DNA from: Desulfobacterales bacterium
GTDB taxonomy: Bacteria; Desulfobacterota; Desulfobacteria; Desulfobacterales; UBA5852
Reading direction: 5' to 3'
Assembly (NCBI GenBank): GCA_963674755.2
Contig: CAXXVS010000001.1
Location: forward strand, 32,001 to 96,000
DNA: 64,000 nucleotides
Shown: positions 2,648-58,008 of the stretch, one piece after another
Numbering within the stretch: the first letter of the stretch is position 1
Layout of the letters: every line of letters begins with the position of its first letter
Notes under the pieces: model-generated
The model's database searches: none
Told to the model about the DNA's origin: nothing
Seen by the model: only the letters and a program-made list of their open reading frames with translations
Program-made: the position numbers and the translations under genes

Positions 2648-2651
2648 GGGG

Positions 2652-3395: not shown

Positions 3396-3457
3396 GGCGG
3401 TCCTTCCCTTAAGGGCGTGAAGGGGGGCGGCGCCGGACGGCAGGCGTCCGCCGGTCG

Positions 3458-4156: not shown

Positions 4157-4202
4157 GGGCCTACCGAAGCTTTCTGCGCCCCACCCGCCGGGGGCGCCTT
4201 GA

Positions 4203-5792: not shown

Positions 5793-5796
5793 CGGG

Positions 5797-6798: not shown

Positions 6799-7574
6799 GG
6801 GATCAGGTCCCGCATATCCACGACGGTCAGGCGCGGATGCTGGCTCAGGATTTCCAGCAAGCGCTCCAGAAAAGCGAAGGCGGCCGCGTTCATGCGCTGA
6901 TGGTGAATCATGATGCCGCACCTGGGTCGGCTCAAGCCCTGGGTGAGGGCTTCTTTCAATCGCTGCCAGCCCACGGCGGCGGGGGCCCGGTCGGTATGCA
7001 AATCGACGCTGACCGGAAGATCAGGAAGCCCCGGCGGTGCGGGGGGGCGGCTGCCCCGGCTGCGTGAAACCGCCTTATAGCCCATTTCCTCCAATAGCGC
7101 CAAGGTGGTTTCCGAACAGCGGTTCCAGGGGGGCGTGAACAGAGGGGTCAGGCGCGTTCCCATAATGGCCGCCAGACGCTCCCGGCCGTGGGTGAGGTCG
7201 CGGGCCAGGATCTCGCGGGACCGGGACGGGCCGAATTCCTGCTTTTTCCCCTCGGATTCGTGATTCCGGTGGCGCCATCCGTGCTGGTGCCAGCACCAAC
7301 GGTCCGGCCGGTCGCCGCCCATGGCGCACAGGGCCTGCCAGCGCGGTGCCGTCAGCCAGGCGGGCACCACCGCCAGGGCCAGCGGCAGGGCGTGACGATT
7401 GAAGAGCTCCAGCAGGCGCGCTATCTGCCGGCCGGGAACGGCCACATCGTCGGCGCGGAAAAAGACGGCCGTGGACGCCGGGTGCGGCTGATCGGCTTCC
7501 TGGCAGCAGGCTGTCAGTTGAAGCGTCCAGTCGGGGGGCAACCCCTGCCACAGCGCCGCGGGAGCCTGCTTCAC
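6795..7574 (-). CDS. Polysaccharide deacetylase family protein
   Basis: FFRADD, WHQHGWRH, FTPPWNR, GIMIHH CE4-like motifs; GTGA overlap with the upstream gene. Confidence 0.83.
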   Translation of the reverse strand: MKQAPAALWQGLPPDWTLQLTACCQEADQPHPASTAVFFRADDVAVPGRQIARLLELFNRHALPLALAVVPAWLTAPRWQALCAMGGDRPDRWCWHQHGWRHRNHESEGKKQEFGPSRSREILARDLTHGRERLAAIMGTRLTPLFTPPWNRCSETTLALLEEMGYKAVSRSRGSRPPAPPGLPDLPVSVDLHTDRAPAAVGWQRLKEALTQGLSRPRCGIMIHHQRMNAAAFAFLERLLEILSQHPRLTVVDMRDLIP

Positions 7575-8743
7575 GACGCACCTCCGGTCGAGGTGGGACG
7601 GGTGATCCAGCGGGCGGTGTTGGCCGCCCCGCGGATGTCGACCGCGGATACGCCGCCCGCATGAGAAGACGCGAGACATTTTTGCAGCCGGTCGGCCAAA
7701 CGGGCCGGCGCGAAGTCCTGGTCTTCAATAATACCTAACAGGCCCCGCTCGGCCAGAAGCCGCGCCCGCAGGCTCTGTTCGCGATTTTGGGCAAAGGGAT
7801 GGACCAGGGCAGGGACCCCGGTGGCCAGAATCGCCATGCAGGTATTGTAACCGGCCATGCTGATGGAAAGATCCGCCGCCTGCAGCCAGGCCGGAAGATC
7901 CGCCGTAAAACGGTCGATGGCGGTCCGCTGATCGCATCGCCGGCGGAGCTGTTCGACCTCCGCTTCCGCCATGAAAGGTCCGGTAAAGACCTGCACCCGC
8001 AGGGACCGGTCTTGCGGCACATGCCGGACCGCCCGGGTGACGGCGTCCAGCAGGGGATAGCCCACCGCCCCGCTGCCGGCGCTGACCACCACGAGGGCAT
8101 GGTCGGAGTTAAAGCCCAGGGCACGTTTCCCGGCCCGGCGGTCCCCGGCCGGCGCGACCGGCGGTGCCACGAAACCGGTATAAACGACCGGAATGCGGAT
8201 GTCGGCCATACGACTGAAGGTGGCGTCCAGCCGGATAACGGCGGGGTCGGCATGGACCAGCAGGGCATCGAACCAGCGGTTGAGCGTCGCCAGGGCGCGG
8301 GCTTCGTGGCGGGCCTGGTCCGTCTTCTCGACGAGGATGTCGCGGACGCTGCAGACCACCTGGCAAGACGGCAGGCGGCCGTTGCGGATGCCCTCCAAGA
8401 GAGGATCCAGCTCCGCCCGGAAAGCCTTGCGGCCCAGGGGGTAGAGTTCGACCAGGAAGAGGTCCGGTTTTTCCTCGGTCAGCACCTGTTCCATAACGAT
8501 CCGCCGCTGCTCCCGGGTTTGGGCCACCGAAAAGGCGCCGCCGGCGTGCAGGTTTTGAAAGGTCGCGTCCATGGCAAGCTCCGGCAGCTGCACGCGCTTC
8601 ACATTCGGTGGCAGCATGGCCGGGGTTTCCGGACCGCCGGAGATCAGAACCACGGGGTCCGGATCCAGCGCCCGACAGATTTCCAGGGTCCGGAAGAAAT
8701 GCCCGATCCCGAGGACATGCTGGCAATAGATGGCGGTCTTCAT
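7571..8743 (-). CDS. Glycosyltransferase, GT-B fold (COG4671 / GT28 C-terminal-like)
   Basis: YCQHVLGIGH N-terminus, SISMAGYNT, REQSLRA. Confidence 0.88.
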   Translation of the reverse strand: MKTAIYCQHVLGIGHFFRTLEICRALDPDPVVLISGGPETPAMLPPNVKRVQLPELAMDATFQNLHAGGAFSVAQTREQRRIVMEQVLTEEKPDLFLVELYPLGRKAFRAELDPLLEGIRNGRLPSCQVVCSVRDILVEKTDQARHEARALATLNRWFDALLVHADPAVIRLDATFSRMADIRIPVVYTGFVAPPVAPAGDRRAGKRALGFNSDHALVVVSAGSGAVGYPLLDAVTRAVRHVPQDRSLRVQVFTGPFMAEAEVEQLRRRCDQRTAIDRFTADLPAWLQAADLSISMAGYNTCMAILATGVPALVHPFAQNREQSLRARLLAERGLLGIIEDQDFAPARLADRLQKCLASSHAGGVSAVDIRGAANTARWITRPTSTGGAS

Positions 8744-9465
8744 TTAAGGCGCGCCCCCTCGGCCGCCGGCCGGGGTTCGAGGGCCAATGCGTTCATGTGT
8801 TCCAGCTCCAGGTCGTTGTCCCGCAAGACCAAGCGATGCAGGCAATAGGGCGCCATGCGTTCCACCGGCAGGCCGCAGTTTCGAAGGATGGCCAGGTGGT
8901 AGACAAGGCCTTTCATGAGGCCTTCATGGGTCACCACCAGCAGGCGCTGCCGGGGCCACTTCCGGCCCGCTTTCAGCAGCGCCCTGCGGGCCCGCGACAA
9001 GACATCGAGGTGCGATTCACCCCCGGGCGGGCAAAAGGACCAGCCGCGGGCCTCTTCCTGATGGAATCGTGCCCGGTGGCGGGTGCGAATGTCATCCATG
9101 GAACAGCCCGTCCAGGCGCCCCAGTCCTGCTCCCGCAAGCGATCATCGCTGCTCAGGGGCAGATGGAGGGTCTGGTTGATGCCGCGGGCCGTGGCGAGCG
9201 CCCGGCCGGTGTCACTGCTGAGCACCTGCTGAAGCGCGAGATCGGCCAGTTGCGGGCCCCAGCCGGTGGCCCACCGCTGGCCCTTTTCGGTCAGGGGCGA
9301 ATCGGCCTGCCCCTGAATGCGTCCGGCCGCGTTCCATTCGGTGGGGGCATGGCGCATGAGATAGAAGATCGTTTTCCGGTGTCGGGCCTGCGTCGCGTGC
9401 ATGGGGTTTCCGTTTTGGAGGTGTTCGTACAGGGCCGCCGATGGTGATACAGCGGTTGGCGTCAT
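8740..9465 (-). CDS. Histidine phosphatase (phosphoglycerate mutase family)
   Basis: YLMRHAPTEWN, SSDTGRALAT, LREQDWGAWTG, VVTHEG. Confidence 0.88.
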   Translation of the reverse strand: MTPTAVSPSAALYEHLQNGNPMHATQARHRKTIFYLMRHAPTEWNAAGRIQGQADSPLTEKGQRWATGWGPQLADLALQQVLSSDTGRALATARGINQTLHLPLSSDDRLREQDWGAWTGCSMDDIRTRHRARFHQEEARGWSFCPPGGESHLDVLSRARRALLKAGRKWPRQRLLVVTHEGLMKGLVYHLAILRNCGLPVERMAPYCLHRLVLRDNDLELEHMNALALEPRPAAEGARLK

Positions 9466-10835
9466 TCACGTCGGGCGGCGCGGGCGTAATCCCGAAGGCC
9501 AGCGTGACGGCGAGGCCCGGGGGCGGGACGACAAGCGCCGCGGTTGCGGTGCGGTGAATCCACGACGCCGCCAGCGGCCTGAGCTTTGACAAGCTGGGCG
9601 CGATAGATCTGAATCAACCCCTGGATCAGCTTTACGTTGTCAAAGGCGGTCTGCACCCTGTGCCGACCAGCGTCAATGGCCCGCCGGCGCAGATCGCGAT
9701 CCGTCAGCGCCCGCATCATGGCGGCAGCCATTTGATCGGGGCGGCCGGGTTCCACCAGCAAACCGGTTTCCTCATGGTCGATGATTTCCGGAAGCGCCGA
9801 TATCCGGGTGGCCACCACCGGCACCCCCATGGCCAGGCTTTCCACCAGGACATTGGGGATGCCGTCCCGGTCGCCATTGGCGGCGATTTCACAGCCCAGG
9901 GCAAAGAGATCGGCCTGGCGGTAATGCTCCCGTACCACATTATGGGGCAGGGTGCCGAGCCAACGGGTGCGGTTGGAAAGCCCCAGGGCATTCACCAGCG
10001 CCAGAATTTTTTCGCGATCGTCCCCATCGCCGATCAGGGTGTAGTCGAAGGCCACACCCTTTTGCTTGAGGTGGGCCAGTGCCTTGAGGACGGTGGGCAG
10101 CCCCTTTTTCGGCGTAAGACGCGCGATGGAAAGGATGCGATAGGGTTCCGCCGGCGCCAGACGTGGGTGGGGATTGTCGAACAAGGTCAGATCGATGCCG
10201 TGGTAAAAGCAGTAAATGGGGGTGGCGCAGTCGTGCCCGAGGTTCAGGAGATAGCGGCGGTTGTATTCGGTGCAGGTCGCGACAAAGGCCGCCATGGCGA
10301 GTTTTTCACGCAGCTGCCGCGGATCGGAGGTATAGATATCCTTGGCATGGGCTGTAAAACTGAAGGGTCGGCCACTCAGCAGGCTGCTGAACATGGCGAC
10401 CGATGTGGGCGAATGGGCAAAATGGGCGTGCAGATGAACGATCCGGCTCCGGGCCAGTCCCGCATTGACCAGGTAGCCGGCCTGCAACAGATGCTTGAGG
10501 GTGGCGGATTTGCGCGTCCGGTGAAAACGCCGCAGGGCCAGGCCCAGGGCATGGGCATAGGCGGCGGGACGGCGGGCGGCCAGTTGCCCGTTGTGCCTGA
10601 GAAGCTGGGGCAGCCGCCGGCTGATAATGGTTTCGGGGAGGTAATCCACCCGGGCGCGGATTTCGTTGACGCTGGGGTGGCAAAAGGATTCCCGTGGGCG
10701 GCGCATGGAGAAGATATGGACCCTGATGCCCTGCCGCTCCAGGAGCCGGATTTCATTGGAGATGAAGGTCTCTGAAATACGCGGGTAGCCCTTGAGGACC
10801 AGACCGAGGACCGGTGGATCAGCAGGCGGCGGCAT
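9462..10835 (-). CDS. Glycosyltransferase family 4 (WcaL-like)
   Basis: GYPRISETFI, HLHAHFAH, FTAHAKDIY, DGIPNVLVESLAMGVPVV; start reassigned to 10835. Confidence 0.9.
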   Translation of the reverse strand: MPPPADPPVLGLVLKGYPRISETFISNEIRLLERQGIRVHIFSMRRPRESFCHPSVNEIRARVDYLPETIISRRLPQLLRHNGQLAARRPAAYAHALGLALRRFHRTRKSATLKHLLQAGYLVNAGLARSRIVHLHAHFAHSPTSVAMFSSLLSGRPFSFTAHAKDIYTSDPRQLREKLAMAAFVATCTEYNRRYLLNLGHDCATPIYCFYHGIDLTLFDNPHPRLAPAEPYRILSIARLTPKKGLPTVLKALAHLKQKGVAFDYTLIGDGDDREKILALVNALGLSNRTRWLGTLPHNVVREHYRQADLFALGCEIAANGDRDGIPNVLVESLAMGVPVVATRISALPEIIDHEETGLLVEPGRPDQMAAAMMRALTDRDLRRRAIDAGRHRVQTAFDNVKLIQGLIQIYRAQLVKAQAAGGVVDSPHRNRGACRPAPGPRRHAGLRDYARAARRE

Positions 10836-12030
10836 TCTCACGGCTCCGGAAGGTCTGAATGCGGCGACGCATGCTGTCGATGCCGGTAAACCGAAAGCGC
10901 GCGAGGGCATCGTAATAGCTCTGGGGGTTTGCCAGAAGATGATCGATTTTGCCGCGCAGGGCATGGGCCGAAAGATCGTTCCAGGGGATATAGTCCACCA
11001 GACCTTGCTTTTTGAAGGCCCGGGCCCGGATCAGCTGCTCGGTGCGCGGTGTTTCCCGGGGAATGACCAGACAGAGCGTGCCTTGGCTGATGACTTCGCA
11101 CAGGGTGTTGTAGCCGCCCATGCTGATCACCAGATCGGCGGCGGCCATCAGTTTTTCCATCCGGCGGTAGAACATGAAGGTCTGCACGCCGGCTTTACGG
11201 GCCCGTTTGAATAGCCCGCCGCGTTCTCCCTTGGGCATAAAAGGGCCCGTGACCAGGACACTTTTGAAACCGTCTGCCAGGGGACGTTCTTCCAGCATGC
11301 TCAGGTAGGTGTCCATCAGGGCGAAACCGTCGCCCCCCCCGCCGGTGGTGACCACGATCAGTTTCTTGTCGGGGTCCACGCCCATTTCACGTCGTATCCT
11401 TTGGGCTTCCCGGTTGCTGGGTGTCTGCCGGGGGATGTAGCCGGTGAAGAGCATTTTACGACTGACGGGCTCCGGGATACCGTATTCGATGATGGGATCG
11501 TAGAAGTCCTGATTGCCGTAGATCCAGATTTCGCTGTAGAGCTTATCCAGATTTTCAAAGACGTTTTTTTTCCACCAGTCGCGGCGTACCGTTTCGGCAT
11601 CATCCATGATATCCCGCAGGCCTAGGATGGTGCGGGCATGGGGCAGGCAGCGCCGTATCCAGCGCAGGGTGGGCAGGACTTCCTTTTTCAGCCCGAGGGG
11701 TTCCTTGTCGACGATAAAAAGGTGGGGCTGAAAGGTTTTGGCGGTGGCCGTGATGATGTTTTTCCGAATATCGAGGGCGTGCCGGGGATTTATCTTGATG
11801 GAGAGCGGCCGATATTCTTCGTTGGTTTTCTTGATCATGCCCGGAATACGGACGAAGTCGATCTGCTCCGGGAAGCTAAACCGTCCCGCAATGGGCGAAC
11901 CGGTCAAAATCAGGATATTGATCCCGTCGCTGCACAACTGGGAGGCAATGGCCATGGTCCTCCGGATGTGCCCCAGGCCATAGGTGTCGTGGGAATACAT
12001 CAGAATGTTGAAGGTGCCGTTTTGCGCCAT
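10819..12030 (-). CDS. Glycosyltransferase, GT-B fold (COG4671-like)
   Basis: MYSHDTYGLGHIRR, TTGGGGDG, ISMGGYNT, EQLIRA. Confidence 0.88.
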   Translation of the reverse strand: MAQNGTFNILMYSHDTYGLGHIRRTMAIASQLCSDGINILILTGSPIAGRFSFPEQIDFVRIPGMIKKTNEEYRPLSIKINPRHALDIRKNIITATAKTFQPHLFIVDKEPLGLKKEVLPTLRWIRRCLPHARTILGLRDIMDDAETVRRDWWKKNVFENLDKLYSEIWIYGNQDFYDPIIEYGIPEPVSRKMLFTGYIPRQTPSNREAQRIRREMGVDPDKKLIVVTTGGGGDGFALMDTYLSMLEERPLADGFKSVLVTGPFMPKGERGGLFKRARKAGVQTFMFYRRMEKLMAAADLVISMGGYNTLCEVISQGTLCLVIPRETPRTEQLIRARAFKKQGLVDYIPWNDLSAHALRGKIDHLLANPQSYYDALARFRFTGIDSMRRRIQTFRSRENAAAC

Positions 12031-46578: not shown

Positions 46579-47862
46579 ATGGGTAACAGAGAAATTAGCA
46601 GGTACGAGGAATACTGTCAATTTCGCACCTCCGTGCGAGGCAGCCGGGATTATATGCTCGTCGGCATCGATGTGGCTAAGGAACGCCATCATGCCTTCTT
46701 CGGCACCGCCACCGGCAAGACGCTCCTAAAGCGCCTGATCTTTGACAACGACCGCACCGGTTTCGAGCAGCTCATCGAAAGAGCTGAACAACTGATGGTG
46801 GCCCATTCCTGCCGAAGGGTCGCTTTCGGACTGGAGCCCACCGGCAATTACCACAAGCCTTTGGCCAACTGGCTTTTGGAACAGGATCAACTTCTGGTAC
46901 TGGTCTCCAACAAAGCCATTGCCGACAACCGCGAGAGTCTTGACGGGCGCTGGGATAAGAACGACACCAAAGACAGCGCCAATGTGGCCGACCTGATGGC
47001 GCAGGGCAAATGCCAGTTCTTTGAAAAGCCTTCGGCGGAGCTTACTGCGTTGCGCAGCTTGCTTTCACTTCGCAAGCGGCTCAAACGCGATGAACACAGC
47101 GTACGCATGCAGATCCGCAATGGGCTTCTGGTTCGCCACTTCCCCGAGATGGATCGCCTGTGGGGCAGCTGTCTTAAAGAGAATCTGGCCATTGTGCGCA
47201 GCTGCCTTGACCCGCGTACCATCAGCGCCATGCCCTTTAACGAGTTCCTTCGGCGGGTGACCGATCGTGATAGAGGCTTGCGCCAGGTCAAACGTTTGCA
47301 GCGCATCCACGAGGTCGCTGGCACCTCCATCGGCTGCCCCGTGGATGAAGCCGTCCAGTTTGAGGCTCTCCAACTGGTGGATCGCTTAGATGATCTGCGT
47401 GACCGTATCAGCCACACCGAAAACCAGATTGCGGATATCTGTCAGGGCTTTTCATCTTACCGGCGATTGTTGACGATCCCCGGCTTTGGTCCCTACGTGG
47501 CCTCTCAAGTGATCGCCCGCATCGGGGACCCACATCGCTTCGCCGGTCGCAAACAGCTCATCCGCCTGGCGGGATACGACCTGAACGCCAAACGAAGTGG
47601 CAAGACCAGTGATAAGGCCGTGCCGGTGATCTCCAAGCGCGGCAATGGCGACCTCCGCTACGCCCTTTATCAGGCGGCCCAGATCGCCTCTTATCATGAC
47701 AATGGATTCCGCGCTTTATACACCCGCTATCTGCAGGGGCGGGAGCGTGAGCGTGGCATCAAGACCAAGATGCGGGTGAAACTGGCCGTCAAGATGCTGG
47801 TCATCGCCTGGTGCATGATGCGTGACGATACGGATTACAATCCTTCGCTGCTAAAGGTGTAA
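46579..47862 (+). CDS. IS110-family transposase/recombinase
   Basis: VGIDVAK, LEPTGNY, KNDTKDS (DEDD RuvC-like), LLTIPGFG, SGK, ISKRGN. Confidence 0.95.
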   Translation: MGNREISRYEEYCQFRTSVRGSRDYMLVGIDVAKERHHAFFGTATGKTLLKRLIFDNDRTGFEQLIERAEQLMVAHSCRRVAFGLEPTGNYHKPLANWLLEQDQLLVLVSNKAIADNRESLDGRWDKNDTKDSANVADLMAQGKCQFFEKPSAELTALRSLLSLRKRLKRDEHSVRMQIRNGLLVRHFPEMDRLWGSCLKENLAIVRSCLDPRTISAMPFNEFLRRVTDRDRGLRQVKRLQRIHEVAGTSIGCPVDEAVQFEALQLVDRLDDLRDRISHTENQIADICQGFSSYRRLLTIPGFGPYVASQVIARIGDPHRFAGRKQLIRLAGYDLNAKRSGKTSDKAVPVISKRGNGDLRYALYQAAQIASYHDNGFRALYTRYLQGRERERGIKTKMRVKLAVKMLVIAWCMMRDDTDYNPSLLKV

Positions 47863-48756: not shown

Positions 48757-49443
48757 CTACCGCTTAAATTTTTTCCTTCCTAAGCCGGCAAGTCCGATCA
48801 AGCCTGTCCCCAGTAAAATGATCGTACCCGGTTCAGGAACGGGAGCGACCTGGGCCCTTGCAATGAGATCTTGATAATCCCTATCGCTGCCCTGCAGCAA
48901 GAGATCTTCAAAGCCAACGATATATTCGTTGTCGAATTCGAGAACCTTGTAAATGACCGCTTGGTCCGGTGTCATTCCGGAATACATTCGGTTTGTCGAA
49001 TCGCCGTTAGGGTCGAGATAAAAGCCGAATGTTACTGGCCCTACAAAGTCTTTATCATAGGAGGCGCCAGAAGCGTCCGAACCGGTAAATATAGGCGTGG
49101 CATTATCTGAATTCGCCACATCGTACCATCCCAAAACGTTTCCCGCGGCATACCCAGCATATTCTGCAAGCAGATCTGCCTGAACCCCGGATCCGGTAAA
49201 CGTCTGCTGGCTTACGCGTTGAAGTGTTATGGCCGCAACACCGCTGTAAATACTTCCGAGCAATGAATCTGCGTTGTTCAAGAGAACATCCTCTATGTTT
49301 CCTATCGCGGCCCCATCAGAAGAAGTTCCAAAGTCAAGTTTGTATTCAGCGGTATCAAATGACAATGATAATGCCGCCGCAGTCGTGCCGGACAATAAAA
49401 AAGCGATCATGATGCAGGTAAGCAATAGAAGGTGTTTTTTCAT
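48757..49443 (-). CDS. PEP-CTERM sorting-domain protein (DUF4114-like)
   Basis: Signal peptide MKKHLLLL; GFEDL...DRDYQD; VPEPGTIILLGTGLIGLAGLGRKKFKR. Confidence 0.92.
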   Translation of the reverse strand: MKKHLLLLTCIMIAFLLSGTTAAALSLSFDTAEYKLDFGTSSDGAAIGNIEDVLLNNADSLLGSIYSGVAAITLQRVSQQTFTGSGVQADLLAEYAGYAAGNVLGWYDVANSDNATPIFTGSDASGASYDKDFVGPVTFGFYLDPNGDSTNRMYSGMTPDQAVIYKVLEFDNEYIVGFEDLLLQGSDRDYQDLIARAQVAPVPEPGTIILLGTGLIGLAGLGRKKFKR

Positions 49444-49491
49444 TTGATTAGTCCTCGGTAAGAATTGAGTCTTGCTTGACGCTATTCCTAG

Positions 49492-49507
49492 AGCAAAAAA
49501 CGAGCCA
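49492..49507 (-). promoter_or_regulatory. Sigma54 promoter of PEP-CTERM gene
   Basis: Minus strand TGGCTCGTTTTTTGCT. Confidence 0.7.
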
Positions 49508-49952
49508 GAAAAAAAATAACATAATAACAAGTTGTTATGAAAAATATTCGGCAAATTAGGAAAAAAATTACCATGCAAAACTGATAAATTCTTTATCCCA
49601 TAGGGATATTTTTACATAATGGGGACAGGCCAGTCCTTACAGGTGTTTCAGATTGGATTTAAAGGGTGAAGGTCAAAGGACTGCCGGATGGTTCGCCCTC
49701 TATGAGGGGCGATTGTCAGGCGATCACTTGAGCATCCCTCTTCGGCGGAGTTTGCCTGCTGTTCAGCTATACTGAAATCATCGTCAGGCAGCCCGATGAC
49801 GATGGACTGACGGGCATTTTTAGATGCGGTTATCCGCCGATGCCAAGCAGCGCTATCGGAGAAAAGATCAGGAATTGGAGCGAAACAGGAAGAGCTTATC
49901 AAGCCCCATATCGTAAAATAGAGGTGTATCGATCAAAAACGATATGAATCCA

Positions 49953-50001: not shown

Positions 50002-50048
50002 TGGTAGGCACGATTGGATTTGAACCAACGACTTCTACCGTGTCAGGG
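50002..50048 (-). repeat. att site: 47-bp duplicate of tRNA-Val 3' end
   Basis: Identical to 57934-57980 (TGGTAGGCACGATTGG...CCGTGTCAGGG). Confidence 0.95.
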
Positions 50049-50152
50049 GGGAATGGATATTTTATCTATATGATAACACTATGAATTTTGTACGTTTAGC
50101 ATGATAACACTAATATGTGTTACCATCTAAATGATCATTGGGCTACGTCCGA

Positions 50153-50461
50153 CTATGGTGCATGGCAAACATTTGAATTGCTCGCAATAGCAGCAAGGTC
50201 TTTTTCAGAGGGGACATATAAGACTTCTTGCAGTTCTGCATCATCATCTCGCAGAATAAGAATAAAATTGTTATTTTTGTTTTTTTTCAATAGCTTACGA
50301 AATTTTTTTTCTCTTGCTTTATCACTTTGTCCATAGATGGTGAAATAGTTCACATCTTCAGGACTTTGTGCCGTAAGCCTTCGAAATAACGGGCTTATAA
50401 AATTAGCGCCAGCTAGGGCGATTACCCAGTTATTTCTTTTTAGCTCTGTTAACGTTGGCAT
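50153..50461 (-). CDS. Hypothetical cargo protein (102 aa)
   Basis: AT-rich ORF about 40 bp downstream of the 360-aa cargo gene; SD-like AGGGG. Confidence 0.6.
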   Translation of the reverse strand: MPTLTELKRNNWVIALAGANFISPLFRRLTAQSPEDVNYFTIYGQSDKAREKKFRKLLKKNKNNNFILILRDDDAELQEVLYVPSEKDLAAIASNSNVCHAP

Positions 50462-50501
50462 CCCGCATCCCCCTATTGTTAAAAAGAGTATGGATATCAG
50501 A

Positions 50502-51584
50502 TTAAATATCCATAGTAAATATTTCTTTTATTTGATTGAGGACCCATTGCAAAGGGTAAATGAAGCTTGGCGCATGGGTTCTAGTCTCAATTGATCGTGC
50601 GGCCAGCGCCATGAAAGCCACTTCCTTGGCTGCCGCTTTTTGCTCATCCCATCCAGAGGCCTCCTCAATTTTTTTCCTGGAATCAGGTAGCAACTTGCAA
50701 AGTTGCGTCATGACATCCCGTGGGAATATCCCCTGGCCTGGATCCCCTTCCCCAACTATGGTTAATTTTTGGGTTAATTTCCCGTCCCTTTTACTTTTCA
50801 AGGTCTCAAAATCTGTAAATTTTTCCGGATCCTGTGAGTCTATTGATAGGACAGCTATCAATTTTTGATATCGTCCAAGTATCCCAACCGCCATATATGA
50901 CTGTATTTTACTCTTATCTGAGCTCAATGATTCATAAATATCATTATCCGTAATTCCAAAATTTTCTTTAAAAAATCTTCTCGTGGCTTTTTCATCTTTT
51001 AAAATCGCGACCGGAATGTTGCCTATTTGGATGCTATTTAAAATCTCATCAACTTTAGTTCCTGAAGAGGCAGTATCCCAGGCTTTACCAGGAATTCCTT
51101 GGCCTTTTCTAAAAAAAGCCTTACCTTCTTCAAAATCACTATCTCCGATTCCGTAACTGATTCTTTCGTAAATTTTCAGCTTATTCTTATATGGGATGAA
51201 AAGAGAGGCTCTGCACGTTCCACGCCATTCATAGTGATCCATTAAAAATGTGATTAACTGTTTAATCAGTTCTTTCTTAAATTCAAAGCCAACGATATTT
51301 GATTTTGATAAATAGAACTCCTTGAAGAGATTAATTGCTGATAAAATGGCAATGAGCCAAGCAAATATATTGAAGAGCATTAAAAAAGAATGAAAGACCG
51401 TGGCATCAAGTAGATTCACGTCAATACTATAGAAATTAAGCAGGCTTCTAACGATTAAATCGGATAGGCAGGGGAGGATAATTAATAGTAAGGTGAGGTA
51501 AAACTGAAGGCCACTGAGCGTCTTTAGGAGTCGGGCCTTTTTGTAATGCTTAAGTCTGAGTAGGTTAAGAATAGATGTGAACAT
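50502..51584 (-). CDS. Cargo protein: two N-terminal TM helices plus GAF-like domain
   Basis: Two hydrophobic segments in residues ~25-90; GQGIPGKAW and SYMAVGI...LIAVLSIDS resemble a GAF fold; AT-rich. Confidence 0.7.
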   Translation of the reverse strand: MFTSILNLLRLKHYKKARLLKTLSGLQFYLTLLLIILPCLSDLIVRSLLNFYSIDVNLLDATVFHSFLMLFNIFAWLIAILSAINLFKEFYLSKSNIVGFEFKKELIKQLITFLMDHYEWRGTCRASLFIPYKNKLKIYERISYGIGDSDFEEGKAFFRKGQGIPGKAWDTASSGTKVDEILNSIQIGNIPVAILKDEKATRRFFKENFGITDNDIYESLSSDKSKIQSYMAVGILGRYQKLIAVLSIDSQDPEKFTDFETLKSKRDGKLTQKLTIVGEGDPGQGIFPRDVMTQLCKLLPDSRKKIEEASGWDEQKAAAKEVAFMALAARSIETRTHAPSFIYPLQWVLNQIKEIFTMDI

Positions 51585-51786
51585 ATCCTCAGATCAGGTT
51601 TTGGTTAACCTTTTTGGGATCAGATATTTTTGAGCCATGTCTGGCATAATTTGAAGGATTGCAGCTGGAGGGATTTCTTGCCGCCTGAAAATACTATATT
51701 TTATGCAGTTAGCAAGAAATTCTTAATATGTAAAGACTTTTTTTGATGCTTCATTTGCGGCATTGCTCAATAGATCAAGACCAAAA

Positions 51787-52899
51787 TCATTCTAAGGGTT
51801 TGATAAGTCCAATAGTCTTACGCCTCAAGCGGTTGGTAACATGCTGATAGTGTTTCCGCAAGGTCTCCGGCGAGCTTCCAACGATCGCAGCCACGGCGCC
51901 GATGTCGGCACCCTCCTCGAGGGCGGCGGTGATGAAATTGTGGCGCATATCGTACGGTCTCAGGCGGCGCTTGATGCCGGCGCGGATCAGGGCGTTTTCC
52001 CAGGCGGTTTTGATGCTGCCGACCGGTTTGTCGCGGTAGCGGATAATCGGACCCTTTTTGCCGTCCTGTTTCCACCAGGTTTTCAGTTCTGAGATAAAGC
52101 CTTCGTGGATGGGGACATGGCGGCGGTCCATGCCGCCCTTCTCGGCGGAAATAACCTCGATGGTGTTGGTGTCCCAGTTGACTGCGTCCCAGGTGAGGCC
52201 CAGCATTTCGACGGCGCCGGGGCGCATGCCCATGTAGTAGCTGAGCTTGATGAAGCGCACCAGGTGGGGCTCGGCCGCTTTCAAAATGGCCCGGGTTTCG
52301 GCCATGGACGGCGGACGGATATCGACCCGCTCTGGCCTGGGCTTTTTGAAATCCCGCACGGGATTGTAGGAGATCAAGGGGGGCTCCTGGCTAACCGCCC
52401 AGTTGAGGATCGCTTTCACGTCGGTTAGCTCGCGGTGGATGGTGGCGTCGCTGATGGGCTTTTGGATACGTTTGCCTTCCAGCTTCTTGCGCCACTTTTT
52501 GACCGACTTGATGGTGGTGCGATCGATGACTGTCCGCGTGGCTTTACGTCGCTCGGCCACGTAGCGCCGCATGTCCTCATGGCTGATCTGGGTGGCCACC
52601 ATGGTGCCGAAAAAGGGAAGGATGTTAGCAGAGAGCCGATAACCGAGCATTCTGCGGCTGTTGACGTTGAATTCCTTCTCCTGCATGTAGCTCACGGCCA
52701 GCTGGGAGAAGAGGGGGCCGCTGGGCTTTTCTTTGGTGCGCCGGCGGCCGAAGCCAAGCTCGTCATTACGCACCCGGGCAGAGGCCTCAGCCTTAGCACC
52801 GTGGCCGAAATATTCCCGTGTGCGATTGGGATCGTCCGGGATCGTTCCCTTGCGATACCGGACGATCCAGCGCCCGTCTTTTAGTTGGTGGACCGCCAT
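51787..52899 (-). CDS. Tyrosine recombinase / phage integrase
   Basis: N-terminal arm-binding-like DGRWIVRY, GMRPG (catalytic R), RPYDMRH, KHYQH (catalytic Y). Confidence 0.93.
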   Translation of the reverse strand: MAVHQLKDGRWIVRYRKGTIPDDPNRTREYFGHGAKAEASARVRNDELGFGRRRTKEKPSGPLFSQLAVSYMQEKEFNVNSRRMLGYRLSANILPFFGTMVATQISHEDMRRYVAERRKATRTVIDRTTIKSVKKWRKKLEGKRIQKPISDATIHRELTDVKAILNWAVSQEPPLISYNPVRDFKKPRPERVDIRPPSMAETRAILKAAEPHLVRFIKLSYYMGMRPGAVEMLGLTWDAVNWDTNTIEVISAEKGGMDRRHVPIHEGFISELKTWWKQDGKKGPIIRYRDKPVGSIKTAWENALIRAGIKRRLRPYDMRHNFITAALEEGADIGAVAAIVGSSPETLRKHYQHVTNRLRRKTIGLIKPLE

Positions 52900-52911
52900 A
52901 ATGAATCTATC

Positions 52912-53124
52912 TCAAGTTTTGGACAGCCTGTCCACAGAGCAGTGCTCACTATCAACGCCCTCCCTGGCGTTTTTTCTCGATTTGATCTCTGTTGGATTAG
53001 CTTTACAAAAGGCGCGTATAAAAATTTTTTCAATCTCTCTTGCCCGCCGGGCAACTCTTTCACGTCTAAGCTTTTCCTCAACACGCTCGACACGAAAGTC
53101 ATCTAATACGATCAATTTCCCCAT
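52912..53124 (-). CDS. Small basic hypothetical protein (70 aa) directly upstream of the integrase
   Basis: SD AAAGGAGG before MGKLIVLDDFR; stop 12 bp before the int start. Confidence 0.65.
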   Translation of the reverse strand: MGKLIVLDDFRVERVEEKLRRERVARRAREIEKIFIRAFCKANPTEIKSRKNAREGVDSEHCSVDRLSKT

Positions 53125-53136
53125 TTGAACCTCCTT

Positions 53137-53315
53137 TAAAAACAAAACGCGCCGAGTGCTCTCAAGCCCCAATAAGGCTCCCCGGCCCTCACGGAATCCG
53201 GGACACTCGGCGCGCGTCATTTTTAAAGACTAAATAAAAATTCCAGATAACGGACTGGAAGCCGTATTGGGTTTGAGAGGGTTTAATTATTACCCAATCC
53301 AACAGCGGAGATCAA
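53137..53315 (-). promoter_or_regulatory. Promoter and attenuator/antisense-like leader of the integrase operon
   Basis: TTGATC-N17-TAATAA; stem CGCGCCGAGTG/CACTCGGCGCG followed by a U tract; loop segment complementary to leader 5' segment 53265-53279. Confidence 0.6.
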
Positions 53316-53501
53316 GTAAAAAGAAACGGCTCGAAATCGGCCATGGTTAGTGTAAGCGTTAACCCGAGATCGTCCAATAAACGTGAAATGGCGCCGTCGG
53401 TTTTACGGGCCGTGCTATAAAAAGTGGCAAAATAGATGTTTAGGACTATAATTTATTTCAAAAGCTGCAAGAGGCCTTCTGATAATTAATTTCCATAGTG
53501 G

Positions 53502-53735
53502 CTAAGGGCATTGCAGCTTAGATAATCTTCTCTTTCCTTCAAGCATACGATAGCGCCGATACAATCCAGGCTTAAAGATCGCCCATAGGAGAAGATAAAA
53601 ATTCGTGCCGTCGCCGTACCCCGGGTTGCGATTCGCCCGAAAGCAAAGACATCCGTCGCAATCAAGGTCATCATCATTGGCCCTGGCGACGGTCATTAAG
53701 CAGTCCGCATACCGTTTGCAATCCGGTTTTCGCAT
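53502..53735 (-). CDS. Small Cys-rich hypothetical protein (77 aa)
   Basis: C-x5-C-x13-C-x2-C pattern; co-oriented with the element genes; weak SD. Confidence 0.5.
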   Translation of the reverse strand: MRKPDCKRYADCLMTVARANDDDLDCDGCLCFRANRNPGYGDGTNFYLLLWAIFKPGLYRRYRMLEGKRRLSKLQCP

Positions 53736-53981
53736 GGCATGAAAATAGGGTGTGGGCGGGTTACCCCGCCCGTGGCAATGAGGGGCATCAAAAGGAAATG
53801 GTCATCGCGGACCCCAAATGCCTCACCCACCACGACCCGCGATCACCCGCACGTTGATTATGGCGCCTTTTTTACGGTTGACGAGACCGCCAGGGATGGC
53901 CCCATGACCTAAATGCTTTTCCCTGTAGACGCAGGCGGGGAGGGTGCCGGGAAGAGCACAAACCGCCTGCGCCTAAGTCTG

Positions 53982-55808
53982 TTACGGAGCGTTATGGCCT
54001 GCACAGAAGGCGCCGGCCTGGCGAACGCCTAAATCGCAATCAAACAGCGCCCGGACGCGGACGTTGCCGGAAGTAAATCCCGTATAGGGATCAGCCAGCA
54101 GCTCCAGGACACCCCAGTGACCGATAAGCAGCTGGGAGAAGTCGCCCAAAAGAATATACCCGGTGGGCATCTGGTTGGTAGCAAAAGCCCGATAGCCGTT
54201 CACGCGCCCTTCGCCGGGCTCCGCGCTGTTCTCCCACACAAAAACGGGATAACCGGCAATTTTGGGTTGGGTCTTTAAGCCTTTGCAAAGCGCCGGCGTC
54301 GTGAGATATGCGCAGCCCTTGGGATCTACGTTGGCGGTCAGGACATCTTCTTCAAGCTCGCAGACTTCCGCAAACGTGGGGGTGTCCGCCACAAAGTCCA
54401 CGACGCCGATACCCGTGGTGACCAGGATCCCGGATGGCTGATTGTCCGCACCGGTACCGTTGATGCCGGCGGAATCCACCGCAACGGCCACCGTGTCAGC
54501 CAGGTCCTGGCGGACCAGGTTTTCAATGTCCGGACTGGACTGGACCAGCATCCGGTGGGAGAACTCCACCAGGCCGGCAACGGTGTGCGGCGTCAAGGGA
54601 ACAGCGCCGAACGCCGGAGTGGATTCGGTGATTTCTCCGGATCCGTCGTTGGCGATCCAGTAGGCCGAGGCCGCCCCTGTTTTTTTAGGGATGGACACAT
54701 TGCCGATAAGGCCGGAAATGATCCGCGCCCCCAGGGCTTGCAGCAGCATGCGGTTGCGCAGCACGTCAATAAACTGGTCGGCAAGGTGCTGTGTTTCGAC
54801 CAGGTTGCTTCCGGTGCCGGCATAGGTGATGTCACGCCGGCCGTATGTCTTCTGAATATCCAGGGGAATCAGAATGCCCTTGGCTTCCCGGCCGAGCTTT
54901 TTGGCCGTAGCTTCCGAGCATTCCAGCTCGAAGCCGGCATGACGGGCGAACTTGTGGTCAACCAACGCCAGGATTGCATTGGATATGCTGTAGCGCTGCA
55001 TTTCGCGTCCGGACAGGCCGAGCTCGAAGCCTCCCATCCCTGCATACATGGTATCGCCGGCCGGAAAAGGTCCCGAAACCATGGGACGTGCATTCGCCCC
55101 ACTCCGATCCATGACAAAGTTGCGGAACTCATCGAGCGTCTTTCCCTGTTCCATAAACTCCAATGCTTCCTTTTGGAGGCCGGTTCGTTTGCCGATGGCG
55201 ATGATTTCAAGATGGTCATTACTCAGATTGCCGTTGTCTCTGGTGGTCGCGGATGCGCCTTTCATTGGAAACTCCCTCCGTTCAATAATCGTTTCGAATT
55301 TATCACCGCCGGCGGCCGCCCGTCCGAAGCCCACGGAAATATCGGCTGGGACCGCCACAATCGAAATTTCGAGCGGCTCCCAGTCGGTGGCACGGAAAAT
55401 AGGGTTGTCCGGATCCGACTCCTCCTGAACCATTTTATGGATACAATATCCGACTGATACATTCTGACGGATACCGTCGATGACATCCTGATAGATTTCT
55501 TCTCCTGCATCCGACTTCGAGAAACGCACTGTGGCCCGGCACTTGCCGCCCTGTATCTTGGCATCCTCGACAACCCCGACCTGCTTCCCGGTGTCATGAT
55601 CCAGGAGCACGGCGCCGCCCCTTTTGATGCGATCCAGGCGAACGGATCCCGGGCGATGGTCAAGGATTTCGGTGCCGAAATAGCGCTCGAAGGGGTCTTC
55701 TGAGGAAAAGGAAAGATTCAGTGTCCGATCTTTTTTCCGGGCACGCTGGACCTGGTCAATTTTTACATCGCGGAATAGTTTGGATGGCGTTTGGATCTTG
55801 CGAGGCAT
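53982..55808 (-). CDS. Fused prohead protease-scaffold-major capsid protein (HK97 fold)
   Basis: Protease: LSFSSE, VLLDHD, NVSVGY, WEPLEISIVAVPAD; capsid: FIDVLRN, GTGADNQPSGI, GDFSQLLIGHWG, DLGVRQAGAF. Confidence 0.9.
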   Translation of the reverse strand: MPRKIQTPSKLFRDVKIDQVQRARKKDRTLNLSFSSEDPFERYFGTEILDHRPGSVRLDRIKRGGAVLLDHDTGKQVGVVEDAKIQGGKCRATVRFSKSDAGEEIYQDVIDGIRQNVSVGYCIHKMVQEESDPDNPIFRATDWEPLEISIVAVPADISVGFGRAAAGGDKFETIIERREFPMKGASATTRDNGNLSNDHLEIIAIGKRTGLQKEALEFMEQGKTLDEFRNFVMDRSGANARPMVSGPFPAGDTMYAGMGGFELGLSGREMQRYSISNAILALVDHKFARHAGFELECSEATAKKLGREAKGILIPLDIQKTYGRRDITYAGTGSNLVETQHLADQFIDVLRNRMLLQALGARIISGLIGNVSIPKKTGAASAYWIANDGSGEITESTPAFGAVPLTPHTVAGLVEFSHRMLVQSSPDIENLVRQDLADTVAVAVDSAGINGTGADNQPSGILVTTGIGVVDFVADTPTFAEVCELEEDVLTANVDPKGCAYLTTPALCKGLKTQPKIAGYPVFVWENSAEPGEGRVNGYRAFATNQMPTGYILLGDFSQLLIGHWGVLELLADPYTGFTSGNVRVRALFDCDLGVRQAGAFCAGHNAP

Positions 55809-55911
55809 GCGACCCCCTCCCGGATAGAGAAGAATTAAGGTGATGCCTTGCGTTTTTCATATTTTGGGGTGTCAGGGGAAGCACCAGCGCCGCCAATGGC
55901 ACGGATGGCAC

Positions 55912-56130
55912 TTAAAGTTGATTTGTGCGGCCTGTTTCGAGGGAAAATGCGGCTTCCTGCCGGCGAATATAGTCATTAAGGCTGTCCTCGCGCACCCGTA
56001 TGCAGCGCTGTCCGAAGCGTGCCGCCACGATCGCGCCGCTTTCGATCAGCCGGTAAGCGGCCCGTTTGGAAATATCCAGGCGCTCGGCAACGGTCGTAGG
56101 CCTCAGCCATTTGGTTTTAGTAGAAGACAT
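55912..56130 (-). CDS. Excisionase/AlpA-like helix-turn-helix protein (HTH_17)
   Basis: WLRPTTVAERLDISKRAAYRLIESGAIVAARFG...IRV. Confidence 0.85.
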   Translation of the reverse strand: MSSTKTKWLRPTTVAERLDISKRAAYRLIESGAIVAARFGQRCIRVREDSLNDYIRRQEAAFSLETGRTNQL

Positions 56131-56165
56131 CCGCCCCCGCTTGAACATCCTTTCCAAAACGGAAA

Positions 56166-56480
56166 TGGTCCTGCTGGTCCTGGCCTGGTCATGCGGCCGT
56201 CATTTACCGCAATAAACTGAATCTATAGGGAAAATTAAAAAGCGTTCGGTGCTCTGGACAAAAAAAGACCAGATCCTGAAATCTATTTATATAAAAATAT
56301 ATTTTTTTTATTTACTTCTTTATTTTGGCTAATAAAGGTCCTAAAGGTCTCAAGATAGCGAAATAATTAAAAATCGAAACTGGACCATGCCAGGACCATA
56401 GATGCTTTTTTGGTAAATTAGCCAACAGTTTTTAGGACTATTAGGGGTATTGTCCTATTCAATCATCCTAAATGGTCCTA
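56166..56480. repeat. AT-rich iteron-like array (putative replication origin)
   Basis: About 11 copies of a (T/A)GGTCC(T)-like motif in both orientations around an AT-rich core. Confidence 0.6.
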
Positions 56481-56493
56481 TGGGAGCACCCGT

Positions 56494-57039
56494 TTAGGCC
56501 GCTTTACTGGCTTGGTAGGCCCTCCCCTGGGCGGTCAGCCGCAGGCCAAGATAGAAGACGATCGATCGCTTTTCACGCTGGAAATGCTTGCCGAACTCGA
56601 CGCCAAATCGTTTCCAGCTGGGCGGATCCTCGCCGGCGGTCGACTCCCACCACCTGCGAAAGGCCTCATACACCTGGCGAGCCGGCACCCGCGATCCGTC
56701 CGGAGCCGGCGAAATGCAGACCTTCGCGAAGTCGACCACGGCCCGCGCCAGGCCCTGGTCATCACCACAGCTCGGCAGCGGCTCATATCGTCCCGCCAGG
56801 GCGCCGGCAAGCTTGGCCGCGTTCCGCCTGGTGGCCCTTGCTTGGTCGGCTGCCAGGGATGCCTGGCGCTCGATGGCGGCCGCTGCGGCAAGGAAGCCCT
56901 TCATCCCTCGCTCGGCATCGAGGCGGCCGGCCTGGTAGCCTTCCGCAAATATTTCCTCGCAAATCCGTGGGAACCGTCTTTTGATGCTTTCAACGGTTGG
57001 GGTCTCCACTTGGTCAAGCAGGCTTATTTTTTTCCCCAT
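56494..57039 (-). CDS. Protein with C-terminal D5/P4-alpha-like winged-helix DNA-binding domain
   Basis: VVDFAKVCI...VPARQVYEAFRRWW...SWKRFGVEF...FYLGLRL; no Walker motifs; SD GAGGTG. Confidence 0.7.
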   Translation of the reverse strand: MGKKISLLDQVETPTVESIKRRFPRICEEIFAEGYQAGRLDAERGMKGFLAAAAAIERQASLAADQARATRRNAAKLAGALAGRYEPLPSCGDDQGLARAVVDFAKVCISPAPDGSRVPARQVYEAFRRWWESTAGEDPPSWKRFGVEFGKHFQREKRSIVFYLGLRLTAQGRAYQASKAA

Positions 57040-57310
57040 GGGGACACCTCATTCCATTTTCCATTCCATTTTCAATTTTCACCTGGGCACTTTGATCGCG
57101 ACCGGCCAAACCGCATATGGCGACCTCTGAGGAAGGACCCGCTGTGCCGATTGCCATTTTAGGACCTTTGGCTAGTCTGCCTGAAAGGTGAGGAGGCGGG
57201 GCGACGGCGACGGCGGACAGCTTTGAAGAGGAATCCTGTCTATTTTGATTCCATCCAAAGTAGCAATGTAGATCAGTAGCCGACATGCCCCAACTCCCCT
57301 TTGGCAATCT

Positions 57311-57679
57311 TCATGGAAGAGTCATAATTGTGAGTGGTTTACCAGAGGCTTTTGCCTTCTCGCGTGAATCTGGCGTTGACATGGCTTTCAACTGTTGGCC
57401 AAGTCGCTGCATCTCTTTTTCGATCTCATTAGAATCAAATCCTAACGCTTCCATTTTAAAACCCACGCTCCTAATCTTTGAATCGGCGTTTATTTCCTTT
57501 GGATCAATTCCGGCCTCTCCATACCAATAAGCGAGCTTTTGACGACGGAAGAACGCCTCCTTCTCAATCAATTTGGACAGGAGTTTGGGAATAGCAATTC
57601 CAGACTCTCCCGCCATTTGTTGAAGCTTTTCGTGCGTGTCATCCTGCAGCCTTACTGAAACAACTTTCGTCGGTGACAT
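57311..57679 (-). CDS. Ribbon-helix-helix (CopG-like) regulator
   Basis: Start reassigned to MSPTKVVSVRLQDDTHEKLQQMA after SD AAGGAGG. Confidence 0.72.
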   Translation of the reverse strand: MSPTKVVSVRLQDDTHEKLQQMAGESGIAIPKLLSKLIEKEAFFRRQKLAYWYGEAGIDPKEINADSKIRSVGFKMEALGFDSNEIEKEMQRLGQQLKAMSTPDSREKAKASGKPLTIMTLP

Positions 57680-57880
57680 AAATCCTCCTTTTGGAATTGA
57701 ATACAAATAATTACAAACGTAGTCGTATAGACTACAAAAGTCAATGAAAATTGTCAGAACATCTGGAGGCATCGAGTTGTGAAGATAAATTTCTTTTTCC
57801 CTGGTGAAGCTAATTTTTTGTGGGGGGTGTGGGGTAAAGGAGGATATCGGACAGACAAATGGTAACACCTGTGTTACCAA

Positions 57881-57924
57881 AAACACTTAGGGCCGCCTCG
57901 TTGAGAAGCGGCCCTAAGTGTTTG
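57881..57924 (-). terminator. Element-supplied terminator downstream of tRNA-Val
   Basis: AAACACTTAGGGCCGC/GCGGCCCTAAGTGTTT inverted repeat followed by a U tract on the minus strand. Confidence 0.8.
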
Positions 57925-57933
57925 TTCTCATTA

Positions 57934-58008
57934 TGGTAGGCACGATTGGATTTGAACCAACGACTTCTACCGTGTCAGGGTAGCGCTCTCCCCCTGAGCT
58001 ACGTGCCT
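57934..58008 (-). tRNA. tRNA-Val (anticodon GAC)
   Basis: AGGCACGTAGCTCAG...CTACC-CTGACAC-GGTAG...GGTTCAAATCC...CGTGCCTACCA, 75 nt with encoded CCA. Confidence 0.97.

Follow-up and report, generated by a model that had tools for sequence, protein, structure and literature searches.

Phage satellites that carry a capsid gene and no portal are known from several sources. In the published model of phage-inducible chromosomal islands (PICIs), the capsid is a core gene, a portal is forbidden, a primase-replicase belongs to the core and three-gene matches are treated as uncertain, and a common variant has no detectable primase-replicase (PMC10085698). EcCICFT073 is bounded by attachment (att) sites and carries an integrase, a helix-turn-helix (HTH) regulator and a capsid gene, without portal, large terminase (TerL), tail or small terminase (TerS) genes; it uses the packaging of a lambda-type helper (PMC6092414). 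Tycheposons (10.1101/2020.12.28.424599) and portal-less mini genomes (PMC13669383) are further examples. Here we describe an element of similar content in a stretch of 64,000 nucleotides (the window) from a Desulfobacterales genome (GenBank assembly GCA_963674755.2, contig CAXXVS010000001.1, positions 32,001 to 96,000). The element is inserted at a tRNA-Val gene and encodes a protease-scaffold-capsid fusion, and its origin as a satellite is very probable. That it is a PICI-like satellite relying on a temperate helper with a lambda-type portal and terminase is a reading to which we give an even chance, and the proposal that it is still mobile through helper-driven replication seems to us evenly balanced. 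The initial annotation had placed the element outside all known classes; capsid-only PICIs, tycheposons and portal-less mini genomes already in print speak against that claim.

Of the two, only EcCICFT073 has a functional primase-replicase, cos sites that have been mapped and a separate decoration gene (PMC6092414), whereas the element has a fused protease-scaffold-capsid, no helicase domain and a putative phage-type origin in inverted orientation, and a cos site was not found in it. The Ccm protein of SaPIbov5, a Staphylococcus aureus pathogenicity island (SaPI), is likewise a satellite HK97-fold capsid homologue encoded without portal or terminase, and it shrinks helper heads, which makes it the model for the head-resizing step proposed below. 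Ccm needs the helper coat and has no protease, whereas the fusion of the element has its own protease with predicted catalytic residues intact; SaPIs, unlike the element, replicate with their own replicon (PMC5052747). PICI-like tycheposons resemble the element in being tRNA-integrated, with a tyrosine integrase, an excisionase and a major capsid protein or TerS as the sole packaging gene, but tycheposons are described from marine cyanobacteria and other marine bacteria, many have replication genes, and the PICI-like ones are cargo-free (10.1101/2020.12.28.424599). The HK97 mini genomes, of about 8.75 kb, share the integrase, sometimes the excisionase, the capsid and the lack of terminase, portal and tail; their main group comes from the gut and combines encapsulin-like capsids with RepA or helicase genes (PMC13669383), whereas the capsid of the element is of a phage type near that of R4C. 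Capsid-forming PICIs have their own capsid and protease, as does the element, which is without their portal, TerL, TerS, HNH and head-tail genes (PMC10085698). PICMIs (phage-inducible chromosomal minimalist islands) have a primase, a fis-adjacent site and no capsid, whereas the element has a tRNA site, a capsid and no primase (PMC10803314); marine virion-encapsidated integrative mobile elements are, like PICMIs, described without capsid genes (PMC9618062, PMC10803314). The Psu, Delta, Sid, Ash and alpha primase-helicase families of P4-like satellites were unmatched in the ten open reading frames (ORFs) of the element. The PICI-like element (PLE) of Vibrio cholerae has its own origin and initiator and a lytic helper, and it encodes a scaffold rather than a coat. 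PLE provides the precedent for a satellite that operates on helper replication machinery with its own origin-binding protein (10.1101/2024.04.22.590561), whereas in the element the origin itself is homologous to that of the proposed helper family.

Measured against the PICI model of SatelliteFinder, the element has a capsid gene as well as an integrase at a specific att site, and genes of the portal, tail, holin and head-tail kinds are absent from it. It lacks a small terminase and a primase-replicase module, of which only a D5 C-terminal winged helix is present. As to an AlpA/MerR/Stl regulator, its HTH_17 protein matches PF12728 (E 4e-12), a profile that counts as AlpA in the PICMI model. 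The element therefore has two or three of the five PICI core features, lacks two, and is at best of Type C. In its workings it resembles a PICI, although we do not count it among the canonical members, and it illustrates how a three-gene PICI match can still be a satellite. In the literature searched, no account was found of the satellite capsid clade, of the four-cysteine-marked family or of a phage satellite with a captured origin in place of its helicase; most subscription journals and the supplements, where Type C PICI listings are possible, lay outside that search.

The element is delimited by a perfect 47-bp direct repeat with copies spaced 7,932 bp apart (Table 1). The repeat is the 3' part of tRNA-Val(GAC), which is the sole tRNA in the window, and an Rfam scan gave nothing else above threshold. 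These boundaries and the intact tRNA agree with the initial annotation. All nine ORFs named there are open and on the minus strand, and a tenth ORF, encoding the leader, as well as an origin-like region (56160-56480) had been missed. Portal, terminase, tail and primase-helicase had been reported absent, and no ORF of the element matched such a family in Pfam and PHROG scans. Genome-wide, matches to portal and TerL profiles were confined to two prophages, A and B, both on contig C2. For TerS, the element gave only an HTH-level match of the Xis-like protein to phrog_57 (E 0.044), and the TerS profile finds prophage A only. The promoters and terminators described as tidy do not stand out from chance: there are 9 promoter-like sites against 9.2 in shuffles and 15 terminator-like sites against 11.5 ± 3.1.

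The fusion protein is predicted to consist of a protease (residues ~1-170), a helical scaffold (~190-320) and an HK97 fold (~340-608), in a model with a predicted local distance difference test (pLDDT) score of 83. Its top structural match is the capsid of siphophage R4C (34%), which forms a T=7 shell (PMC10276861). Pfam recognised only Phage_capsid and Peptidase_S78 in the protein, with no encapsulin-type domain found, and a search of viral contigs with the protein as direct query gave no match. His-71, Ser-118 and Glu-147 are invariant across 100 aligned homologues, and we take them to be the S78 catalytic set. The fusion keeps 108 of 124 near-invariant columns, compared with a consensus match of 298/573 (52%) overall, which argues that the gene is under purifying selection and is not decaying.

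The genomic context of this capsid type was surveyed at 246 homologue loci. A lambda-type portal was present in 205, 18 were too short upstream, and 23 were without it. Nine of the 23 had an HK97-type portal and TerL and were dropped from the portal-less count, leaving 14 loci without either portal type, eight of them resolved further. Integrases occur in seven of the 14, and five of these seven loci, from unrelated bacteria, are islands of 8.6-11.2 kb between att sites. Among the ORFs chosen for scanning, five of the seven have a primase, helicase or Rep, two have none and two have a tape-measure gene; one further locus of the 14, L240, has D5 and TerS. Two att-bounded islands (L190:6096-15114 and L193:1372-12588) carry the capsid fusion followed by a tape-measure protein, with no match to portal or terminase.

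In a tree of 165 capsid sequences (169 entered, 4 removed for gaps), the element falls within a 13-member clade (support 0.99) that contains none of the 131 portal-linked sequences; 11 of the 13 members had been preselected on the basis of an indel signature and a previous tree, and the genomic surroundings of 8 are known. None of the seven members with visible upstream DNA has a portal there. Loci L239 and L240 follow the PICI layout, with the order D5, TerS, capsid; their TerS is of the Nu1 type, as is that encoded by L301 and L302. The other portal-less islands branch outside the clade on long branches (median 0.74 versus 0.31), which suggests from the sequences that a one-gene head module was captured by satellites several times. 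In a sample of 401 genomes of the phylum, no further clade member was recognised; ten matched, including this one, two of them portal-linked, and short loci stayed outside the tree. A PICI-like viral contig (L300:283-9913) has a separate protease and a 398-aa coat with the capsid indel signature of the element, and a TerS of another family (phrog_83).

A sister element, L303, was obtained from a clade-specific pattern scan of JGI metagenomes that returned 5 contigs. It is 8.25 kb long, lies at tRNA-Val(CAC) with perfect 48-bp att sites, and has the order xis, D5 helicase, two small ORFs, capsid fusion, four-cysteine protein, small ORFs, integrase. The capsid fusions of L303 and the element are 46% identical and the four-cysteine proteins 42% (E 6e-10), and a portion of the hairpin leader that follows the cysteine gene is common to both elements. 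No match to portal, TerL or TerS was found in L303. The initial annotation had allowed that the gene set might recur nowhere else; L303 repeats the core genes, with a D5 helicase in addition. Together with the portal-free clade and the retained capsid residues, this recurrence upholds its view of a satellite rather than a decayed prophage. Beside L303 (9757-11565), two genes within 120-bp direct repeats have the appearance of an integron-like cassette, and presumably they are nucleotide-modification-associated defence genes.

Derivation of the element from a full prophage by deletion would fit the integrase and capsid homologues in prophage A (39.5% and 39.6% identity) and the homologues of the att arm, leader and origin in prophage B. 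However, these parts derive from two phage types, the layout is repeated in L303, and the capsid gene runs outward from the tRNA, the reverse of its orientation in both resident prophages. Portal-linked sequences are absent from the capsid clade, and whole-record DNA comparison with five records of B-type phages, the relatives of prophage B, matched only the leader and origin, in two of the five. We regard this derivation as largely refuted and its probability as very small.

The four-cysteine protein marks a wider family. A homologue search with the protein was empty, and its model (pLDDT 77) had no Foldseek match in BFVD or PDB. The Atlas taxa of the family suggest a host among the Thermodesulfobacteriota. 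Of 301 genomes of the order, 58 contain the family; of 18 neighbourhoods inspected, six are mobile-element-like and none contains this capsid. The family occurs in L336 (genome G117; 11.5 kb, with a primase-helicase and TerS), in L340 (Rep and TerS) and in L346 (10.3 kb, with a 66-bp att, D5, a tape measure and a protease-scaffold without coat). L346 has xis (E 4e-12), the motif upstream of D5 and the four-cysteine gene in common with the element. These loci point to a satellite family with interchangeable hijacking modules: the capsid fusion in the element and L303, TerS in L336 and L340, and tape measure with protease-scaffold in L346. The L346 island (779-11161, genome G260) lies at tRNA-Pro, has an integrase and an AlpA-like ORF, and contains no coat gene. 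In L336 (5095-7635), an 846-aa protein with a RadC-like domain (phrog_10276) is encoded immediately after TerS.

Outside the capsid module, the element resembles the replication region of B-type phages, which in intact form has the order leader, D5, origin, primase. The DNA at 57046-57263 is 73-75% identical over ~216 bp to the stretch that immediately precedes the D5 helicase gene in viral records L354 and L355. This homology stops a few bases short of the start codon of the winged-helix gene, and the leader holds two more GGTCCT sites. The winged-helix protein has a D5-like start of 11 residues that matches the start of D5 in L346, a segment of ~85 residues of unassigned origin, and a C-terminal winged helix of the origin-binding type that is ~30% identical to the last domain of the phage D5 helicase; the ATPase is absent. 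Because a D5-type leader precedes the gene, its last domain is that of D5, and both its N terminus and the repeats after it are L346-like, the gene is assigned, from sequence, to the D5-helicase slot. No close homologue and no solved-structure match were found for the protein. Stand-alone winged-helix ORFs adjoin the D5 gene in 7 of 32 B-like phage loci, which means that a protein of this sort can occur as a natural accessory; the N terminus of the element protein compares with these ORFs at p ~0.09. In three B-like phages (L363:5660-6001, L364:5480-6001 and L382:2251-2751), a second stand-alone D5-type winged-helix ORF lies between origin and primase.

The putative origin is inverted relative to the gene direction and is 82% identical over 122 bp to that of prophage B and 76-80% to those of L354 and L355. 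The place after D5 that it takes in intact B-type phages is also that of PICI origins; in EcCICFT073, the origin lies directly 3' of the replication gene (PMC6092414). Clusters of at least five GGTCCT/AGGACC sites occur only twice in the 6.7-Mb genome, in the element and after the D5 stub of prophage B. Among 401 genomes of the order, the only strong match to the origin was prophage B, with ten others giving 23-49-bp pieces (E 1e-4 or worse); the exact motif was absent from the viral contigs searched. Iteron cores are 83-87% conserved, compared with 64-69% elsewhere.

Since the relatives L303 and L346 have a D5 helicase, the lack of a helicase in the element looks like a derived loss within the family, not a class trait. 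It could then be a PICI of the L303/L346 family that is replication-dead, having lost its D5 helicase by rearrangement and kept origin and leader as leftovers of module swaps. This is the main rival of the helper-dependent reading and a real possibility, although we consider it improbable on balance. A helicase is retained in L303, L346, L239/L240 and L305, one iteron block of the element is degraded, integrase remnants lie at the same tRNA in the congeneric genomes G058 and G306, and prophage B itself carries deletions. Such an element may still excise and be packaged at a low rate: loss of pri-rep in EcCICFT073 lowered transfer from 8 x 10^3 to 50, ~100-fold and not to zero (PMC6092414). Against such a loss, the region is no product of a simple deletion, having ~85 new in-frame residues and an inverted origin, and all ten ORFs are open. 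The better conservation of iteron cores than of spacers also argues against it, as do L164 and L193, islands with the same capsid type that likewise have no replicase among the ORFs scanned.

An anti-phage decoy island, rarely mobile, whose winged helix and extra origin titrate B-type replication proteins while its capsid poisons heads, would be consistent with the match of origin and leader to a phage family that infects this host, with the existence of stand-alone and Bro-N-fused D5-type winged helices, and with the blocking of its helper by the capsid homologue Ccm of SaPIbov5 (PMC5052747). It is nevertheless quite unlikely, given that none of six proteins had a PADLOC match, that att, integrase and xis are all intact, as they would be in a mobile element, and that prophage B sits in the same genome.

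Both resident prophages were considered as helpers for a PICI-like satellite. Prophage A (~1,155-1,191 kb, at tRNA-Pro) is apparently complete, with a siphophage tail, and encodes a Nu1-type TerS, lambda-type TerL and portal, a capsid fusion and an integrase, with no D5. It also has a second tyrosine recombinase between the replication gene and a primase-fragment ORF (G000:C2:1178749-1180017; L002:10750-12018). Prophage B (169,771-196,961; L004, L005), at tRNA-Val(CAC) with a 53-bp att, has decayed through two deletions. It is ~90% identical in nucleotide sequence to L354/L355, but its integrase is lost, its D5 helicase is reduced to 66 residues, and a 2.6-kb deletion has fused the N-terminal 294 aa of the primase in frame to TerL as a 770-aa chimera. 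The head, tail and lysis genes of prophage B look intact, so that it could be a partial helper or itself be mobilised. Both prophage types have the portal and TerL families that accompany this coat type. The sole other D5-like helicase match in the genome (22% identity) comes from a further island, where an 862-aa primase/D5-like gene has a probable integrase behind it (G000:C2:1290795-1294626).

The sequence-level basis for helper dependence consists of the integration at tRNA-Val, the integrase, Xis-like and ribbon-helix-helix (RHH) genes, the intact capsid fusion of a portal-less clade, the D5 slot without ATPase and the origin of a phage family. In the mechanism we propose, infection by or induction of the helper would lift repression, and Int and Xis would excise a 7,932-bp circle. 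Helper D5 helicase and primase would then work in trans on the captured iteron origin, and the winged-helix protein of the element might bind the iterons to load, steer or compete for the replication machinery. The capsid fusion would assemble on the helper portal, alone or mixed with helper coat, and remove its own protease and scaffold, giving a smaller head or spoiling the heads of the helper. Finally, helper TerS and TerL would package the element at a putative cis site, and the helper neck and tail would complete the particle. In its most specific form, which we put forward tentatively and think rather unlikely as a whole, the element has dropped its own replicase and mimics the helper origin in cis, its winged-helix protein diverts helper D5 and primase, and a self-cleaving coat replaces a multi-gene shell of coat, protease, scaffold and decoration on the helper portal. 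If so, replication and head assembly would be parasitised with two genes, and the replication system of one phage family could be paired with the coat of another. The element offers a direct test of origin piracy with a 320-bp fragment and two phage genes.

Several observations weigh against this mechanism. No complete helper is resident, since prophage A is without D5 and prophage B is broken, and the genome has no intact B-type D5 helicase. B-type phages use a different coat family, and the capsid of the element is only 40% identical to that of prophage A. When six intergenic regions were compared with ten targets, no match to the terminase regions of prophage A or L354 and no cos or pac likeness was found. 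In EcCICFT073, interference persisted and transfer was little altered when the capsid gene was deleted (PMC6092414); head resizing is therefore not a necessary function of a satellite capsid gene. At this tRNA, G058 and G306 hold only broken integrase copies. The N-terminal match to the D5 of L346 (shuffle p 0.001) is the best among 10 comparisons, and the three origin comparisons behind the conservation of iteron cores (Fisher p 0.04, 0.002, 0.02) are mutually dependent, with an alignment that may favour the cores. One of four iteron blocks is degraded, and a second helicase-less member of the family was not found.

The initial annotation had also considered that the element builds tail-less particles of its own. 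In such a helper-independent scheme, the circle would be enclosed by the co-assembling fusion, the winged-helix protein serving as DNA adaptor. The presence of protease, scaffold and coat in one modelled polypeptide is compatible with it, portal-free packaging has been proposed for the mini-genomes (PMC13669383), and the N-terminal part of the winged-helix protein is loosely like the start of a scaffold. That likeness is not significant (E 1.9; shuffle p 0.07), and a scaffold origin of the N terminus was rejected. The element has no replicase, packaging ATPase, entry or lysis gene, and the lambda-type TerS of its clade relatives needs helper TerL and portal. We consider such particles highly improbable.

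Table 1. Features of the element in the window (a dot in the strand column, no strand assigned; aa, amino acids; RBS, ribosome binding site).
Feature	Position	Strand	Evidence or remark
Distal att core, 47 bp	50002..50048	.	repeat comparison; perfect copy of tRNA 3' end
Candidate arm-type sites, repeated	50071..50126	.	inside distal att; putative role
Cargo 2, 102 aa	50153..50461	-	37% GC; no credible family
Cargo 1, 360 aa	50502..51584	-	no credible family; 38% GC; two hydrophobic segments, both N-terminal
Tyrosine integrase, 370 aa	51787..52899	-	PF00589 E 1e-14
Small ORF, ~70 aa	52912..53124	-	directly before int; no family
Hairpin leader and RBS ahead of small ORF	53126..53228	-	partly kept in L303 and L349
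Four-cysteine small protein, 77 aa	53502..53735	-	conserved family; 3' of capsid gene, also in L303
Protease-scaffold-major capsid fusion, 608 aa	53982..55808	-	PF05065 E 5e-41; S78 protease; phrog_617 E 8e-140
Xis/AlpA-like HTH_17 protein, ~78 aa	55912..56148	-	PF12728 E 4e-12; TIGR01764
Putative B-type phage replication origin	56160..56400	.	iteron blocks around AT-rich core; function suggested by position after D5 genes
TAGGAC-type repeat block	56430..56480	.	directly after winged-helix stop; resembles repeats after L346 D5 gene
Helicase-less D5-type protein, 181 aa	56494..57039	-	Pox_D5 winged helix, weak (E 3e-3)
Leader ORF, 97 aa	57014..57307	-	54% identical over 69 aa to ORF preceding D5 gene in B-type phages
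RHH/Arc-like regulator, 122 aa	57311..57679	-	weak: PF21983 E 2.4e-3, phrog_3180 E 1.8e-3; RBS
Candidate integrase arm site and hairpin with 19-bp arms	57861..57923	.	putative arm-site role
att core on tRNA side, 47 bp	57934..57980	.	repeat comparison
tRNA-Val(GAC), integration target, intact	57934..58008	-	ARAGORN; Rfam RF00005

The candidate arm site next to the tRNA, taken together with the tRNA, is ~83% identical to the equivalent position of prophage B. Of 12 congeneric genomes, 8 match the tRNA together with its flank over a long stretch. Five were inspected at this site: G168 and G206 have a single att copy, G294 has a 1.6-kb insert, and G058 and G306 have islands with truncated integrases 80-88% identical to that of the element, so the tRNA is a hotspot for this integrase family. 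Family scans of the two cargo genes, the small ORF and the four-cysteine ORF gave no credible match, and the cargo genes had no PADLOC and no plasmid match. A short fragment on contig C3 (G000:C3:159895-159988) resembles the 5' end of the integrase gene of the element (58% over 31 aa).

Public sequencing data comprised assembled contigs of four runs from one study, with no RNA run listed among those containing the sequence. The element appears there as a single 7,942-bp unitig broken at the repeats, from which excision or amplification is not readable. Its depth was 20.5 in run X1, with 12.3 and 18.3 for the flanks, and 14.4 in X2, with 13.3 and 15.2. In both runs, a contig with a variant of the origin (window 56299-56301) had a depth of 30 and 44, compared with 14-21 for the element; it may represent the origin of prophage B or of a related phage of the sample. 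The left flank of the element contains an IS110-family transposase gene (46579-47862) and a PEP-CTERM/DUF4114 gene (48757-49578).

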